DNA from: a virus
Taxonomy: Duplodnaviria; Heunggongvirae; Uroviricota; Caudoviricetes
Strand: one strand, 5' to 3'
Length of the DNA: 24,282 nt
Virus record (IMG/VR): IMGVR_UViG_3300037067_001516
Both the position numbers and the translations under genes were made by a program. Every line of letters begins with the position of its first letter. Positions within the stretch are counted from its first letter, which is position 1. This document shows, one piece after another, positions 3,641 to 17,388 of the stretch. Below the pieces are notes generated by a model. The model saw only the letters and a program-made list of their open reading frames with translations, was not told the origin of the DNA and made no database searches.

Positions 3641-3850
3641 TTATAATTTACGATTTATTTCTTCAGCGAAATTTACTTCTTTTAAAAGGCACTCTTCGAA
3701 TTGAGACATTATTTTCTCTGGTGTCGCAGTAGATTCCGTTGGTTTTTCTACTTGGAATGCGTTTGTTTTTTCATTTATACAGTCAAGAGCATGTCTAAGT
3801 CTTGATAATAGTTCACCATAAGGTAATGAAATTTGTGAGTCTGGCCCCAT
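3641..3850 (-). CDS. Hypothetical protein
   Basis: Fills the gap exactly, with TAATATG and TAATATATG junctions. Confidence 0.6.
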   Translation of the reverse strand: MGPDSQISLPYGELLSRLRHALDCINEKTNAFQVEKPTESTATPEKIMSQFEECLLKEVNFAEEINRKL

Positions 3851-8872: not shown

Positions 8873-10933
8873 TTAATTAAATCTAGTTGATTGTCTACCA
8901 TTTGATGAAGCATCTGGAGAACCATATTTTTTAATTCTTAAATTTATTGTACCGGCTACTGTTGCTGCTGTTGGGAAAGAAGAATCACTAGTGAAAGTGA
9001 CAGTCTCTGTGCCGATCAAGTTTGAATCTGAACAGTATGTTGTTGTTTCTACACTTAACAGACTGGCATCCCCGGTGTATGTCGTAGTTTCATCTACCGA
9101 TTTCAAATTAGCTTCTCCGTTGAAAGTATTCTGAATATCTAATCTTTTTTTGTTAGTATTACTATTGTACACACAGGAGACAACCTTCAATATATTTACA
9201 TTTCCAGTGTATGTTGTTGTTTTATTTGTTAATCTTAAATTAGCTTCTCCGTTGAAAGTGTTCTGAATATCTAATCTTTTTTTGTTGGTATTACTTGTAT
9301 ACGTACTAGAAACTATTTTTAAGATACTCATGTTTCCAGTATACGTCTCTGGTATATCTGTATGTAAAAGATTAGAATCTCCATTATAAATTTCTACTTT
9401 TATCCTAACTAGATTAATATCTGCGGTATATGATTCACTACGTGTTGTAACAATAGATGCATCACCCTTATATACCGCGGATAGATCATGTTTAGCCAAA
9501 TTTGAGCCGCCAGTAAAGTATGTTGATACACCTTTGGTCAATATAGAATCTCCAGTATATATACTGCTCATCGTGCTTGTTAAAGATGCATTGCTTGAGA
9601 ATGACGCAGATTTTTCTTTAATCAAATTAGTATCTGCTGCAAATTGTTGTTGGATACTTTTTGTTAATATAGAATCCCCAGTATATGCGCCAGCAATTAC
9701 AATAACTAAACATGCATCACAACAGAAAGATATTGATTCTTCTCCGACAAGATTGGAGTCCGAAGTAAGTTGAGCTGGTAGTACAGCCAATAAACTAGCA
9801 TCTCCATGAGAATAAAGATCGTCAACAACTTTTACGAGATTTGAATCTCCAGTAATATTCACCGGTATAGTTCTCAAAAAATTAGAGTCCGATTTTATCG
9901 TCGTTGATTCTTCTCCTATTAGGTTGGAGTCCGATGTAAATACTGTGGACTCTGTACTAATTAAGTTTGAATCTGAAGTAACTTGTCCAGATATTTCTTT
10001 TGATAAACTAGAGTCAGAAGTATATGTGTTTGATTCAATACTTTTTAAATTTGAATCAGAAGTATATGTGGCTGCTGCAGCAGAAGTCAATGATGCATCG
10101 CCAGAAAAATCGCCAGAAACAGTAGTACTTCCTTCAACAAAAGTAATCGTGCCATCGGCTATAAACTTAGCTACCATCTCAGAATCATCTTCAGTCAGCG
10201 TATTTCCATCTCCAGTAATAGAACAAGTACCAAAATCAGAGGTAGTATAACGAATTATGACAATGCCTGACCCACCAGCAGCACCATTGTCGCTTGTATT
10301 ATATGAAGTTCCACCTCCACCTCCACCTCCAGTATTAGCACTACCAGCTCCAGGATAACCAGTACTATAAGCACCATTACCACCACCACCTAAGCCGCCT
10401 AAACCTTTTCTTGATTCTGGAGCACTATTACCACCACCTCCACCACCACAATAATAAACCGAAGAACCATCACGAATAGTATTAGCTGTTCCATCTCCAC
10501 CATCACCTGAATCATCACTGGGTGCATCTTGTCCAGCTTCACTAGCACCACCACCACCAGCGGCAGTAAAACTAGCGTCACCTCCGTCTCCACCTTGCGA
10601 ACCAGTACCACCAGTATTAGCTCCACCTCCACCACCACAACCACCAGCATTACCAGTTTGTGATTTACCACCACCTCCTCCACCACCGTCAGCAGTAATA
10701 TCATCAAAAGAAGAATCACCTCCGTCTCCTCCGTGTTCAGGGCCTCCATATTTTCCGCTTTTTCCCGCAGAACCTCCACTACCTACCACAACCGAATATT
10801 CTCCTCCGATAACAGCGTGAGAAGCTTCATATTGATAACCACCACCACCACCACCACCACCAAAAACACCAATAGAACTTTGAGCACCACCCCCACCCCC
10901 AGCAGCTATAACTAAAATTTTTATATTAGGCAA
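8873..10933 (-). CDS. Gly-rich-domain fibre/surface protein with ~14-aa GDxxL repeats
   Basis: N-terminal ILVIAAGGGGG...ANTGGGGGG...GGSGIVIIRY glycine-rich domain, then ~27 repeats of (Y/F)T(G/S)DSNL. The TTG start is uncertain. Confidence 0.75.
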   Translation of the reverse strand: MPNIKILVIAAGGGGGAQSSIGVFGGGGGGGGYQYEASHAVIGGEYSVVVGSGGSAGKSGKYGGPEHGGDGGDSSFDDITADGGGGGGGKSQTGNAGGCGGGGGANTGGTGSQGGDGGDASFTAAGGGGASEAGQDAPSDDSGDGGDGTANTIRDGSSVYYCGGGGGGNSAPESRKGLGGLGGGGNGAYSTGYPGAGSANTGGGGGGGTSYNTSDNGAAGGSGIVIIRYTTSDFGTCSITGDGNTLTEDDSEMVAKFIADGTITFVEGSTTVSGDFSGDASLTSAAAATYTSDSNLKSIESNTYTSDSSLSKEISGQVTSDSNLISTESTVFTSDSNLIGEESTTIKSDSNFLRTIPVNITGDSNLVKVVDDLYSHGDASLLAVLPAQLTSDSNLVGEESISFCCDACLVIVIAGAYTGDSILTKSIQQQFAADTNLIKEKSASFSSNASLTSTMSSIYTGDSILTKGVSTYFTGGSNLAKHDLSAVYKGDASIVTTRSESYTADINLVRIKVEIYNGDSNLLHTDIPETYTGNMSILKIVSSTYTSNTNKKRLDIQNTFNGEANLRLTNKTTTYTGNVNILKVVSCVYNSNTNKKRLDIQNTFNGEANLKSVDETTTYTGDASLLSVETTTYCSDSNLIGTETVTFTSDSSFPTAATVAGTINLRIKKYGSPDASSNGRQSTRFN
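9105..9295. repeat. Recent internal duplication with 132-bp period
   Basis: aaattagcttctccgttgaaagt(a/g)ttctgaatatctaatctttttttgtt(a/g)gtattact at 9105 and 9237; SNTNKKRLDIQNTFNGEANL occurs twice. Confidence 0.9.
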
Positions 10934-11138: not shown

Positions 11139-13028
11139 TTATTCAATGTCACCACACATGTATTCCATGTCTAATTCTCCGACAGGAGTCCAATCTTCTA
11201 TCTGGAAACTTGGTGAAGGAGAAACTGAAGGACTATACGATGGGGAAATAGAAGGACTATAGGATGGTGAATATGAAGGGCTAAAAGATGGAGAGTATGA
11301 CGGAGAAATAGAAGGACTATATGAAGGAGAATATGAAGGACTAATTGATGGAGAATAAGAAGGGCTGGTTGACGAACTATATGACGGAGAAATGGAAGGA
11401 CTATAAGATGGGCTTATCGAAGGCGAGATTGACAAACTATATGACGGAGAAATGGAAGGACTATAAGATGGGCTTATCGAAGGCGAGATTGAAGAACTTA
11501 ATGATGGAGATATAGAAGGGCTATAAGATGGGCTAATAGAAGACGAAGCAGAAACACTTGGAGATGGAGATATAGACGGACTATAAGACGGGCTGGTAGA
11601 AGACGAAGCAGAAACACTTGGAGATGGAGATATAGATGGACTATAAGACGGGCTGGTAGAAGGCGAAAGAGAAGCACTAATTGATGGAGAAATTGATGGA
11701 CTAATTGATGGGGAAAAGGAAGAACTTAATGAAGGCGAAAAAGAAGGGCTGAATGAAGATGAGGCACTTTCTGATGGAGAGATGGAAGGACTAAAACTTT
11801 CAGAAAAGCTTGAACTTAAGGAAGGTGAATAAGATAAACTCGCAGAAGAACTTAATGATGGAGAGAATGAAGGACTAGCAGAGGCACTAATGCTTGGACT
11901 CGAAGAAGGAGAATATGAAGGACTTACCGATACAGAAGGACTCTCCGACGGAGATATAGATGGACTGATACTTTTCGAAATACTAGGAGAAAAAGAAGGG
12001 GAAATAGAAGCAGACGGGCTAACACTCGGGGAAATAGACGGTGAATATGATGAACTCGGTGAAACAGAAGGGCTATAAGAAGGTGAGTGTGAAGGACTGA
12101 TTGAAGTTGAAGGAGATTCTGATGGAGAGTACGAAGGGCTGATAGAAGCTGAAGGGCTTGCTGATGAAGAAATAGACGGACTGTAAGACGGACTGTAAGA
12201 CGGACTGATACTCGGAGATACACTAAAAGAAATTGAAGGGCTAATAGAAGCCGAAGGACTCGCCGACTGACTTATTGACGAACTAAGAGAGGGACTCGCG
12301 CTAGGGCTTACAGACGGACTTGTTGAACCTGCCGCACCTGTAGTTACATCAACCGTGCTGCCATAAGAAGTTCCAGCACTATTAGTAGCATAAGCCCTAA
12401 CACGATAAGTAGTTTCTGGAGTTAATGGAGGTTCTACATAATTAGGACTGATATAATCGAAATAACAATAATGGCTAGTATCTAAAGTGTATGCGTCTAT
12501 CCATATTTTTGCTACATCCGCTCTAGCTGCTGTAAAAGCTAGAGCACTACTCCAAGCACCATTATTTACGTTTACTTTAAAAGTATCAGCAGATAATCCT
12601 TCCCAACTTCCAGCACCGCATTCGAATTGAATACCAATTCTAATAGCAGTATTATCTGCATATGTTAAAGAACCAATCTGAGTCCAAGCTGCACCAGCGG
12701 CATTCCAATAACAAATTGTATCATCAGTCCACAAAGCTATTGCTAGGGCTTCATTATTGCTTGAATCTTTTAATCTTAATATTTGATAAAGATTACCTGC
12801 CGTAGTCATCTTCATCGAAATATAAAACGTTCCACTAGCAACAGCAGTAATCGCTCTAGAAATACTATCTTCAGTATTGTTAAGAGTAATTTTTACCCCT
12901 TTGTTCCCTTCTAACGCTGCATCAGTGCTGACATCAAAAGTAGTATCTCCACTCCAAGAGTTTTGACCATTCAAGTCGCCATCATTCAAACCGTTAAATT
13001 TATCTTCAAATGTCCAAAGATTTGCCAT
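11139..13028 (-). CDS. Surface/virion protein: lectin-like beta-sandwich cassette + C-terminal strands of an FN3-like domain + Ser/Pro mucin-like tract
   Basis: [25 protein letters not shown]...YFDYISPNY, then [22 protein letters not shown], then SPSx repeats. Confidence 0.8.
11208..12326 (-). repeat. Coding low-complexity repeat (SPSx)n, ~370 codons, containing 60-bp tandem duplications
   Basis: 12-bp period with degenerate codons; near-identical 60-mers at 11371-11430/11431-11490 and 11521-11580/11581-11640. Confidence 0.9.
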
Positions 13029-13031
13029 ATA

Positions 13032-15017
13032 TTAATATTTATCTATTGTTTTAGTAAACGCACCAGTCCCAAAATCACCGTCGTCATAAGCTATGCTGTC
13101 AGAGGTGGTGGGGTCTTCTCCTACTGGATTTTGAGGAGTTATAATATCCCAGTAAGTATAATGACCATTACCTGTTTGTTTTTCAACGTGAACTCTGCCA
13201 ACTGTTGTCCAAGCCCCTTGACCTGCATCAACCCAACTCGTAAAAGCACTCCAAGAAGTTCCGTCATTAACTCTTACTCTATATTTTGTTCCCTGAACTG
13301 CATAGTCAAATTCTATATTTAAAATATACCATTGGTTAGCAGTATAAGAAATTATATCTACATAACCACTTGCATAATATTGTATTTTTCCGCCTGAACT
13401 AAACTTTATATTTGCGGCTATACTACCTCCACCTGCGGCTCTTAATTGAAAGTTTGACTCATCAGAATTATTATCAGTTTTCATCATTGCTACATACATT
13501 GAACCCTCTGCGATAGCTGTAATTTCTCTTTGAGCATTTTGAGCAATCCCATCGTGAATCATCTGTAAGGCTTTTGCCCCTTCGTATTTTGTAGTAGTCT
13601 GAACCTCAACTCCAGCCGTGCCAGTCCAAGAGTCTTGTCCGTTAATATCGCCGTCATTCAATGTGTTAAATTTTTGTTCGTATATCCAATCTGTGCTAGG
13701 TGCTACTACTTTAGGACAATACGCAAACCCTCTTCTTGTAGCATTAGCACCGCCTGTAGCTGTTATATTTCCATTGCCTATAAAAGAAGAAGAAGCGACA
13801 GAAGAAGCAGCTTGAGTTGTTACTGTCGGAGGATCGCAGTAATTAGGACTAATGTCGTCAAAATAAATATAAGTTCCTGATACTTCACTTGGGACAGCGT
13901 CTATTCTCATCGAGGACATTCCAGTCCCATTTGTTCTTTCAAATGGATATGGTCCATTCCAATCTCCATTGTTGACACTAACACTAAATTGCCTCTCTCC
14001 TAAACTTTCATAAGCAGCCGCTCCTGAACATCTAAATTTAATACCTAATCTATACCAAGTGCCAGCTTCAAATGTTTCAGTTCCGACCTGAACAATCGAA
14101 GCAGAGTCTTTATTATAATATTTTAATTTATGGTCGCTACTATCAAAATATAAATTTACCTCTGTCTGACCATTGTTATCATTAAGCAAAAAAAAGTTTG
14201 GTTGATTATTCCCATCATCAGTTTTCTTGAAAGAAATATACATTATTCCACTTTCAATATTAGTGAAAGACCTGGTTGCTGTTATTCCCCCAGCGTTACC
14301 AGTTACTTCAACCCCTTTTGCACCCTCGTATCTCGCACCTGCGTTGGTGGTAACATCAAATTTTGCGTGAGCAGTCCAACTATCCTGCCCATTCAAATCA
14401 CCGTCATTGAGAGTATTAAATTTTTGTTCGTATGTCCAAAGGTTTGGGTCTAAATATCCATAACCACCCTCGCTCCCAAAAGCTTCTATTTTAAATTGGT
14501 CCCCTTTAGTAACCGGGTAAACAACACTCGTCTTAAAGTATTCCGTTTCTCCTGCTTTAATGAGTTGAGTAAATTGTTTTTTATGGTGCATCCCTTTCAA
14601 ATCTTTTCTAAGTGGAGTAATTTTTTCGTCTTTTATTCCGTCTTTATCAATGACTGCAATTTGTTCATAAACTGTTTCCGTAAAAACTACCTTGCTGATC
14701 TCCTTAGTTTCTCTGTCGACAACATCATCAATAACTTCTTTCTCCCCAACAACTCTTCTAACATTTCCATAATATCTATCGTCTCCACCGAAAGCACACA
14801 AAGTTTTTACGTGTTGGTTTTTATCTGAAATATTTGTAATTGAAAAGTATACAGAGATCGAGCCACCAAGACCATAATAATCTTTACTATCACTCTTGAT
14901 TATCAAATCACAATTGGTAGTATCTTTATCAATATAATTGATACTTTTTTCAACACCATTAATAAACTTAGTAGCCGGTATTTTTTCTATTTTAATTTGT
15001 CTTAGTTCTTCTAACAT
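13032..15017 (-). CDS. Surface/virion protein with two lectin-like (ConA/LamG-like) cassettes and the first two segments of an FN3-like domain
   Basis: Two W.YEQKFNTLNDGD.NGQDSWT cassettes; PPTVTTQAAS...GNGNITATGGANATRRGFAY; DPTTSDS...DDGDFGTGAFTKTI. Confidence 0.8.
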   Translation of the reverse strand: MLEELRQIKIEKIPATKFINGVEKSINYIDKDTTNCDLIIKSDSKDYYGLGGSISVYFSITNISDKNQHVKTLCAFGGDDRYYGNVRRVVGEKEVIDDVVDRETKEISKVVFTETVYEQIAVIDKDGIKDEKITPLRKDLKGMHHKKQFTQLIKAGETEYFKTSVVYPVTKGDQFKIEAFGSEGGYGYLDPNLWTYEQKFNTLNDGDLNGQDSWTAHAKFDVTTNAGARYEGAKGVEVTGNAGGITATRSFTNIESGIMYISFKKTDDGNNQPNFFLLNDNNGQTEVNLYFDSSDHKLKYYNKDSASIVQVGTETFEAGTWYRLGIKFRCSGAAAYESLGERQFSVSVNNGDWNGPYPFERTNGTGMSSMRIDAVPSEVSGTYIYFDDISPNYCDPPTVTTQAASSVASSSFIGNGNITATGGANATRRGFAYCPKVVAPSTDWIYEQKFNTLNDGDINGQDSWTGTAGVEVQTTTKYEGAKALQMIHDGIAQNAQREITAIAEGSMYVAMMKTDNNSDESNFQLRAAGGGSIAANIKFSSGGKIQYYASGYVDIISYTANQWYILNIEFDYAVQGTKYRVRVNDGTSWSAFTSWVDAGQGAWTTVGRVHVEKQTGNGHYTYWDIITPQNPVGEDPTTSDSIAYDDGDFGTGAFTKTIDKY

Positions 15018-15652: not shown

Positions 15653-16651
15653 TTAAAATGAATTGCCTTTTGGTATTTGATTAAATTGACTTTTTGTTAT
15701 TCTTCTAACAAAAGTTTTATTTTCTATTAAGTACAACGCCGCGTTGCCTTCTCTTCCATTAACTACTTCCATCAATTTACCACCATAGATAATCCCTTTT
15801 CTGCCCGGGGCTTCATTTTCAATCAGCATTCCTTTATCGTTTTGTTTTATTAATTCCATTATTTCTGGCGACATAGTATTTGGTTGATCCACAATTAACC
15901 ATGGATTAAACATAAAATTATTAGTAAACCATTCTGCTCTAAATTTTTGCCATTGTCCTTTAAATCTATCACCCCATGAGTTTGGTGATCCAATCCATTT
16001 ACCGTTGTCATCTATACCAGCTTTGCCAAAAAATAATGCGTGTCCCCAATCTTTAGAACCTATCTTTGGTTCTAATGAACTCCATGTACCATTGTTAGAT
16101 CCACTTACTCCACCAACTACACCATAATTATCTCTGATACTTTGAGCGATAATCTCCATATTAACATCATTTATCATTCTATACTCTTTAGCAGATAATA
16201 TTTTTGCTTCCGAATCTATTTCTGGTTTTTTCCAACCTGAATTTTTAATAAAAGATTCTGACGGTGGTTGACCATTGTCATACGATGGGACTAATTTTTC
16301 TGAGATCGCGCCCCAATCAACTGCGAGTTTGCCGCCGTCTCTGATATAAGCTCCACCTTGTGGTAGAGCAATTTGAGAATAGATTGCTTTAGCAGATACA
16401 TCAGTGTACTCTTTTGTTTCTATTGTATCTAATATTGCAATGTAATATGACCATGCTTGACCTACGCAAGATGAAGAACCATCTTGGTTTTTAATTGGGA
16501 TACTATGATCTATTACTTTTTCTATATCATATCCTGCTTCCCAATCAAAAGGAGCTGCCGAAAACGCGACACCATCATATAGACGATCTCGTGTATCGGC
16601 AGCATCCTTAACTGCACCTGTCCCAAATTTTATCTTGGTAGTGCGAGGCAT
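15653..16651 (-). CDS. Papain-like cysteine peptidase (C1 family) with a small C-terminal domain
   Basis: NQDGSSSCVGQAW (oxyanion Q, catalytic C), WGHAL (H), PNSWG (N). Confidence 0.9.
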   Translation of the reverse strand: MPRTTKIKFGTGAVKDAADTRDRLYDGVAFSAAPFDWEAGYDIEKVIDHSIPIKNQDGSSSCVGQAWSYYIAILDTIETKEYTDVSAKAIYSQIALPQGGAYIRDGGKLAVDWGAISEKLVPSYDNGQPPSESFIKNSGWKKPEIDSEAKILSAKEYRMINDVNMEIIAQSIRDNYGVVGGVSGSNNGTWSSLEPKIGSKDWGHALFFGKAGIDDNGKWIGSPNSWGDRFKGQWQKFRAEWFTNNFMFNPWLIVDQPNTMSPEIMELIKQNDKGMLIENEAPGRKGIIYGGKLMEVVNGREGNAALYLIENKTFVRRITKSQFNQIPKGNSF

Positions 16652-16671: not shown

Positions 16672-17388
16672 TTAAAATGTTACAAGCTTAGCGTCGCCAT
16701 TGAAAGCATTTGGATGATCAACTTTTAACAAACTAGCGTCACCAGTTTCAGTGCTACTTATATCTACTTTCAAAATGTTTGAGTCCCCAGTAGGTGTACC
16801 AGCGTATGTGTTAACGATCGCAGCATCACCTGTAGCAGTGTCGCTATATTGTGTGCTGAAATTAGCATCACTAGTAACAGTTGTTGATATTCCAACTAAT
16901 GTAAGATTTGTATCGCCAGTAATTGAGGCAGCAACGTTTCCGATCATGTTAGTATCTCCAGACATTGTCGCGGCGATAACTACTTTCAAACTAGCATTTC
17001 CAGTATAGTCATCTGCTATTACTATATTGAGACTAGAATTTCCAGAGAATGATGTTGGAGTTTCTGTGACTTTTAAATTAGCATCTCCAGTAAATGTGGC
17101 AGATTCTGAAACATGTAAAGGAATGTCGCCCAATTCCATAACTGAAACTCTACCTGCTTCAGAACTTTGGATGGCAGATATTTTTGTTGGATACAATATA
17201 TCAAATATATATTGTTCTCCAGCTTTTATCAGATAGCCACCAGTAGCAGTTACAGCGTCAGCATCGAACGCGATATAACAATCCTTAGACGTGGATACTA
17301 GCGTCTGTTTGCTATGCCCGCTAAGAGTTCTTGATGCCGATGTACCGCTTGTTGCTATCGTGGCTATGTTAGTGTAAGGATAACTCAT
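16672..17388 (-). CDS. Virion-type protein: small beta domain + GDxxL repeats
   Basis: About 10 repeats such as FTGDANL, YTGNASL, MSGDTNM, FNGDAKL. Confidence 0.7.
   Translation of the reverse strand: MSYPYTNIATIATSGTSASRTLSGHSKQTLVSTSKDCYIAFDADAVTATGGYLIKAGEQYIFDILYPTKISAIQSSEAGRVSVMELGDIPLHVSESATFTGDANLKVTETPTSFSGNSSLNIVIADDYTGNASLKVVIAATMSGDTNMIGNVAASITGDTNLTLVGISTTVTSDANFSTQYSDTATGDAAIVNTYAGTPTGDSNILKVDISSTETGDASLLKVDHPNAFNGDAKLVTF

Follow-up and report, generated by a model that had tools for sequence, protein, structure and literature searches.

An FN3-like domain encoded in three pieces by two adjacent genes of an uncultured phage: a candidate joint between exchangeable adhesin heads

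IMG/VR record IMGVR_UViG_3300037067_001516 is a 24,282-nucleotide stretch of DNA, here called the window, with a phage-like layout: nearly all of its long genes lie on the minus strand. Two consecutive genes on that strand, A and B, are the subject of this report; between them they encode the pieces of one domain resembling fibronectin type III (FN3). Gene A (13032..15017, minus strand, as are all features below) is an open reading frame (ORF) of 661 residues that encodes, in order, an N-terminal domain without known family (14448..15017, 190 residues), a lectin-like domain, L1, that precedes the FN3 (13833..14447, 205 residues), FN3 piece 1 (13716..13832), a second lectin-like domain, L2 (13122..13715, 198 residues), FN3 piece 2 (13044..13121), a three-residue tail and a TAA stop codon. 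After an intergenic gap of 3 nucleotides (nt), gene B (11139..13028, an ORF of 629 residues) opens with a lectin-like head, L3 (12426..13028, 201 residues), followed by FN3 piece 3 (12339..12425), a Ser/Pro-rich repeat stalk (11202..12338) and a short acidic C-terminal end. The stop and restart read TAA TAT ATG (13026..13034), and A and B share one frame.

A preliminary description, made from the sequence alone, had proposed that three peptides encoded at these places, in one frame, join into a single FN3-like unit. A profile built from 38 uninterrupted viral homologues from IMG/VR loci, with the window sequence excluded, agrees: searched against the six frames of the window, it matches strongly at three places only, 13829-13716 (profile positions 1-38, E 1.5e-12), 13118-13041 (43-68, E 8.7e-7) and 12425-12339 (70-98, E 5.4e-11), the next match having an E value of 0.63. 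The pieces tile one domain, with all strands in order, zero overlap and no spare copy in the window. Joined end to end they score 123.7 bits against the profile and are up to 76% identical to uninterrupted domains. Pfam fn3 (PF00041, cut-off 25 bits) lists neither A nor B, and three intact homologues, taken one at a time, reach 14.6-17.9 bits there; the subfamily, lying below the Pfam cut-off, is therefore called FN3-like.

The fold of the window pieces is transferred by homology from an intact homologue, L011. Its AlphaFold2 model (predicted local distance difference test, pLDDT, 98) contains seven strands, A-B-C-C'-E-F-G, and matches the FN3 domains of NCAM2 and titin with Z scores of 11.1-11.2 (root-mean-square deviation, rmsd, 2.1-2.5 over about 90 aligned residues), which upholds the proposed FN3-like fold. 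Model strands at 30-39/50-58 and 61-68/75-84 flank the two break sites, and both breaks fall in loops, as had been predicted: on this model the first is the C-C' loop and the second the E-F loop, the position of the stop-restart junction. Piece 1 would comprise strands A, B and C, and piece 2 strands C' and E, so that gene A is predicted to supply strands A-E (A, B, C, C', E) and gene B, through piece 3, strands F-G. In the FN3 topology strand F is central in the C'-C-F-G sheet, and in the profile alignment of the 38 intact homologues it carries most of the invariant residues; A alone would thus be without the core of its domain. The pieces appear undecayed, as the preliminary description had also stated: they outscore 23, 26 and 30 of the 38 intact domains (pieces 1, 2 and 3) and conserve 18 of the 19 invariant columns, with the exception lying at the edge of the insert.

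The gaps between the pieces hold protein-coding paralogues. L1 has 37% identity with L2 and 41% with L3, and the three domains share starts of 68 nt that are 76-79% identical; the fold of L1, aligned with L2 and L3, is assigned from L2. The model of L2, an in-frame insert in the C-C' loop, has a pLDDT of about 90, and its best structural match is the sialidase BT_1020 (5mqs_A 414-610; Z 19.0, rmsd 2.5, 167 aligned), with GH16, GH131 and legume-lectin structures at Z 12-14. Identity to the top structural matches is 5-13%. By its model, L2 has a concanavalin A (ConA)-like lectin/glucanase fold, a beta jelly-roll, and sugar binding is predicted from the fold alone. L3, placed in the same group by paralogue alignment, is 62% identical to the N-terminal head of a stand-alone protein, P0003, and its Atlas matches are DUF6645 (0.97) and Sialidase-like_CBM (0.95). 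A search for group I/II introns with Rfam at gathering score gave no match in the window, and, beyond the starts and ends that the L paralogues have in common, the gaps have no flanking att-like or target-site repeat of at least 14 nt.

The preliminary description took both gaps for inserted lectin-like cassettes. That holds for L2, whereas L3 looks like the normal head of another gene. Its beginning resembles a usual gene start, as in P0003 and P0212, and its end is the proline linker found before an uninterrupted FN3 in head-FN3 relatives; gene B is therefore best understood as a head-FN3-tail gene without strands A-E and not as the host of an inserted cassette. The clear insertion is the first gap only. 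The head of a further relative, P0189, also has a normal gene start; it is 41% identical to an FN3-free gene in locus L061 and has the same closing proline.

The outer parts of the two proteins are less readily classified. The N domain of A gave only chance-level Pfam rows and Atlas matches to unnamed clusters; it is commonly fused before L in relatives, the N+L architecture being found in 14 other proteins at 28-38% identity. The stalk of B, with repeat spacings of 24, 36 and 60 nt, has 199 Ser and 73 Pro in 399 residues, and the term mucin-like, applied to it earlier, is apt for composition alone. MSCRAMM and serine-rich NCBIfam matches to B were rejected as compositional and far below cut-off. 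The stalk may be an extended spacer, and its glycosylation is thinkable, given a nearby GT2 enzyme.

The junction itself is real: on the minus strand TAA TAT ATG occurs twice in the window, at 13034 and at 3643, where it separates a 69-residue ORF from a helicase gene, and TAA terminates 27 of 31 ORFs checked. The arrangement recurs in a metagenome contig, L059, whose parts follow the window's order from the beginning of A into the stalk of B (the first 281 residues of B are covered) and carry variants of their own. Over a 593-nt tract, 12992-13584 (6% diverged), L059 differs from the window at 36 positions; the tract takes in the greater part of L2, together with piece 2, the junction and the opening codons of L3. 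In L1, piece 1 and piece 3 the two sequences are identical. The nine bases of the junction are unchanged in L059 despite the flanking differences, and three distinct 661-residue alleles of A are present in JGI, Logan and ENA assemblies. Since the diverged tract keeps both stop and restart, the split is not an assembly error. Contigs of runs X1-X4 include no piece across the junction among the filtered records listed, a result that carries no weight.

As both alleles carry the stop, the differences between them most simply arose in a gene that was already split. In piece 2 they amount to 3 changes at 18 synonymous sites and none at 60 replacement sites (Fisher p 0.011), when about 14 replacement changes would be expected at the synonymous rate of L2; one residue of the three-residue tail that follows is changed. 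L2 within the tract is under purifying selection (proportion of synonymous differences, pS, 0.24; of replacement differences, pN, 0.005), and by the same comparison piece 2 is as well: synonymous-only change indicates that it is kept as a protein although its chain lacks strands F and G.

The tract is sharply bounded and ends inside the conserved L3 start motif, with the rest of the 3 kb nearly identical; a third allele, P0123, mixes window and L059 features, which suggests the shared L start motif as a crossover point. A 216-nt record of run X1, at window 13049-13114, joins an L3-like end directly to a piece-2-like stretch. The record, short and of low depth, hints at a further relative with another L inserted.

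Relatives place the split among intact and inserted forms. In 294 fetched proteins there are 143 piece-2 motifs: 137 are linked to piece 1 and continue, four have a large insert at the same loop, three of these four stopping right after strand E, and two (P0064 and P0108) stop early without an insert. The last two were set aside as probable fragments; the cluster mate of P0108, P0243, is complete. A profile search of 299 proteins gave 688 full and 51 partial domains and added P0112 and P0284, the latter a 5'-partial sequence that contains a LamG-like insert and stops after strand E. Inserts in the C-C' loop thus number seven units in all, four of which end after strand E (window A, P0048, P0057 and P0284) and three of which are unsplit (P0053, P0112 and L041). 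L041 has its unsplit FN3, with a different domain of about 155 residues in the loop, at codons ~399-639 of the matched frame. The near-invariant Cys that ends strand C (window 13716-13727) is Ala in window A, P0048 and P0057, the three of the four proteins stopping after strand E in which piece 1 is retained, and Cys in the unsplit P0053; Ala also occurs in a few intact domains.

P0048 differs from window A in its head, bears a LamG insert at the shared site and stops 4 residues past strand E; P0189 has an unrelated head followed by strands F-G only, and is the sole lone F-G protein found. Each is a single ENA record on a contig of 3509 bp, and because of this shared length the two are taken as probably one split pair. 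They are the nearest or joint-nearest sequences to the window pieces (93% and 90%), the window piece 3 being 90% identical both to the F-G piece of P0189 and to the intact P0279, and only 7 of 90 positions differ between the window pieces and those of P0048/P0189. The pieces of P0057 and P0284 are diverged, those of P0057 being at most 79% identical to any other. In three lineages, P0057 included, the pieces score at or above intact domains, and the P0189 F-G piece scores near the median. L2 has no detectable sequence likeness to the inserts of P0048 or P0057; judged by sequence, the same break recurs with unrelated passenger domains.

Wider searches returned mainly intact domains. Two targeted patterns for split relatives gave no match in IMG/VR, general IMG/VR patterns picked up uninterrupted domains, partial matches that were weak or at the edge of a locus, and a single loop insert (L041), and one scan of prokaryote genomes found only an unrelated Bacteroidetes protein with an intact FN3. 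Among 50,697 cultured-phage records there was no tblastn match to the FN3 part of A, and among shorter proteins no lone F-G partner appeared in 7 matches from 20 candidates. A quick tree (119 rows, 61 columns) groups window A with P0048 (Shimodaira-Hasegawa-like approximate likelihood ratio test, SH-aLRT, 87) and these two with P0053 and P0279 (SH-aLRT 86), with P0057 elsewhere; no support in it is strong.

P0279 consists of an L-like head, an intact FN3 and a tail, insert-free and unsplit; P0053 has the insert only, unsplit, and its head and insert are homologous to those of P0048. They are plausible as earlier stages of a history in which a head-FN3-tail gene like P0279 would have received a domain in its C-C' loop, as in P0053, a break in the E-F loop would then have put the head of a second gene before strands F-G, and heads would have been swapped by recombination.

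Other members of this FN3 family are interrupted elsewhere or combined with other parts. P0069, a named Patescibacteria protein, has a repeat domain of about 260 residues inside the FN3 F-G hairpin (residues ~323-585), a third insertion site in the family. In P0059 (residues 692-880) a third FN3 copy runs through strand E and is followed by in-frame repeats of another kind, which is either an in-frame E-F loop insertion or a misassembly. L062-L065, P0046 and P0189 carry the same 30-residue C-terminal repeat tail on unrelated heads; the tail is probably an anchoring or oligomerisation tag.

From these data we consider it likely, with confidence somewhat above even, that A and B form a strand-complementing heterodimer in which the FN3 is a branching hub for exchangeable adhesin heads. 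The two proteins would be translated together, coupled one to one across the 3-nt gap, and the predicted F-G hairpin of B would complete the five strands of A by beta-strand complementation. In FN3 the CD and EF loops are at one, 'south', pole of the domain (PMC7140400). With both loops at one pole, L2 (from the C-C' loop), L3 (from the E-F loop) and the Ser/Pro stalk would leave the rebuilt hub there, and L1 with the N domain would leave from the opposite one. The resulting arm would present three heads predicted to bind sugars and would probably be exposed on the virion; such a role for A and B is suggested by the neighbouring genes and by the presence of the family on IMG/VR contigs. A broader and more tentative proposal, to which we give rather less than even weight, is that the FN3 serves a family of uncultured phages as a plug-and-socket hub: the C-C' loop receives a binding domain, the chain is broken in the E-F loop so that a second gene can attach its head and tail by way of the F-G hairpin, heads at the three positions recombine, and the split arose or was kept in several lineages for the extra branch.

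Several points weigh against the heterodimer. That A and B bind, and that they sit on the virion, is something we infer, and no PHROG family matches A or B. The searches that found the split relatives were queried with the window's own pieces and are biased toward them. The split is rare: the 173 fetched loci hold 134 distinct full-length domains and no split besides L059. The adjacency of P0048 and P0189 is deduced from equal contig size and not seen in DNA, and no F-G partner was found for P0057 or P0284. With 7 differences in 90 positions, the split shared by the window and P0048/P0189 could be young. The selection test concerns piece 2 only and three substitutions, pieces 1 and 3 being identical between alleles. 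In the L2-containing model of A the strands expected of the FN3 pieces do appear, but with less confidence than L2 (pLDDT about 57-77) and from an alignment that included intact domains.

The alternative that survives best, unlikely but deserving real consideration, is that the locus is a rearrangement scar: the head of the second gene landed in the E-F loop, the remaining FN3 pieces are linkers, or anchors for DNA crossover during cassette exchange, and A and B act independently. Heads and tails are certainly shuffled in these genes, the P0189 head having its FN3-free counterpart in L061 and the P0189 tail sitting on the unrelated heads of L062-L065; the rarity of the split and the end of the L059 tract inside the L3 start motif also fit a scar. 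An anchor for crossover would be expected to stay identical at the DNA level, but piece 2 has changed, and at synonymous sites only; in three lineages, moreover, the pieces score at or above intact domains, the P0189 piece being near the median. A second alternative, distinctly improbable, grants pieces 1 and 2 a function and lets something other than B complete them: a self-dimer, a five-strand remnant that positions L2, or a partner outside the window. It draws on the restriction of the selection result to piece 2, on the missing partners of P0057 and P0284, and on the window being part of a contig of about 88 kb (the gene A protein is on record from one of 88,282 bp), but precisely the strands that A lacks are encoded, undecayed, in B, the gene that follows, and P0048/P0189 are probably paired likewise.

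Part-time bypass of the stop, by readthrough or stop-hopping, would give a chain of about 1290 residues with two in-frame inserts in one FN3; we regard it as very improbable, and the preliminary description had already thought readthrough weak. The shared frame allows it, and in the window the stop stands between matched codons (TAT TAA TAT), the context that a review gives for stop-hops in synthetic constructs (PMC5009743). In L059 the context is TGT TAA TAT and the match is lost, so a programmed stop-hop was rejected as not conserved; TAA is the usual stop of the window's ORFs, the identical nine bases join two ordinary genes at 3643, P0189 opens with a normal gene head, and that review knows of no natural in-frame stop-hop (PMC5009743). 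Bypass, if it took place, would leave the domain with the same set of strands. A chimeric assembly or sequencing error among the paralogous L cassettes, invited by their similar 68-nt starts and by the want of a read-level bridge over the junction, is hardly credible given that L059 holds the whole order with its own variants, that three 661-residue alleles come from separate assemblies and that the same break is found in proteins with unrelated inserts.

A strand-complementing A-B heterodimer would have parallels in several systems. In pili, donor-strand complementation completes an incomplete Ig-like fold with a strand from a neighbour and joins adhesin to stalk. The pilus joint is repeated to polymerise and uses chaperones, whereas the phage would have a single FN3 joint; no such machinery was seen, and no search aimed at it was made. 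Dutta and colleagues are said to have found, in 2005, that FN3 cut in the CD and EF loops is complemented with high affinity. Engineered FN3 monobodies exchange fragments; their CD loop can be cleaved and, in a sensor, has accommodated a fluorescent protein (PMC7140400; 10.1101/2022.08.26.505460). Those are artificial human or consensus FN3 domains, split, permuted or loop-inserted, whereas the phage split is natural.

Two vertebrate cases come closer in different respects. In VpreB/lambda5 an Ig-like sandwich is made from two genes, lambda5 supplying the strand missing from VpreB and inducing its folding (PMC12859133). Here, too, A encodes an incomplete sandwich and B the missing strands. VpreB/lambda5 involves one strand given to a V-type domain, with folding on association shown (PMC12859133); the phage pair would involve a two-strand hairpin, an FN3 and passengers at both breaks. 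The insulin receptor FnIII-2 is an FN3 with an insert and a chain break that two polypeptides share, but it derives from one gene through proteolysis inside the insert and is held by a disulphide (PMC2577065); the phage has two genes, with insert and break in different loops. Cleavage of the insulin-receptor type was rejected for A and B, the break being a stop codon and a new start kept in two alleles.

Modular phage adhesins with Ig-like or FN3 domains likewise carry shuffled binding heads on small beta-sandwich scaffolds, each domain in one chain (PMC13370021). The same is true of the nearest uncultured-phage relatives, the head-FN3-tail proteins P0279 and P0053, which belong to the same FN3 subfamily, and inserts in the loop that holds L2 occur in P0053, P0112 and L041. 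Two-gene strand complementation, a cleaved two-chain FN3, and engineered FN3 cuts and inserts in the CD loop are thus already known. No natural phage FN3 split between genes was found in the literature among the matches listed, in a coverage that mostly leaves out subscription journals.

If the heterodimer exists, it is a natural two-gene FN3 joint with which phages build branched, exchangeable adhesin arms on a 98-residue scaffold, and the series from intact through inserted to split forms shows how a domain turns into a heterodimer. A 29-residue hairpin should then fold and bind its five-strand partner, and the pair would be a split tag of natural origin, one already tolerant of passengers of 200 residues at each break. 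The locus also carries a warning for annotation: family searches say nothing useful about either gene, and the domain that they share escapes notice when each is viewed alone.

The surrounding genes include a DnaB-like helicase, a uracil-DNA glycosylase, the GT2 glycosyltransferase and repeat-rich proteins. The protein at 15653-16651 gave no match in Pfam, PHROG or NCBIfam searches; it has Cys, His and Asn motifs that, we presume, recall a papain-like peptidase. It adjoins a small membrane protein with weak spanin-like matches, and the two are a possible lysis pair. The split pair is flanked by two proteins of short Thr/Ser/Asp-rich repeats, probable fibre proteins, at 8873-10933 and 16672-17388; the first of these has a Gly_rich_2 head (phrog_2295).

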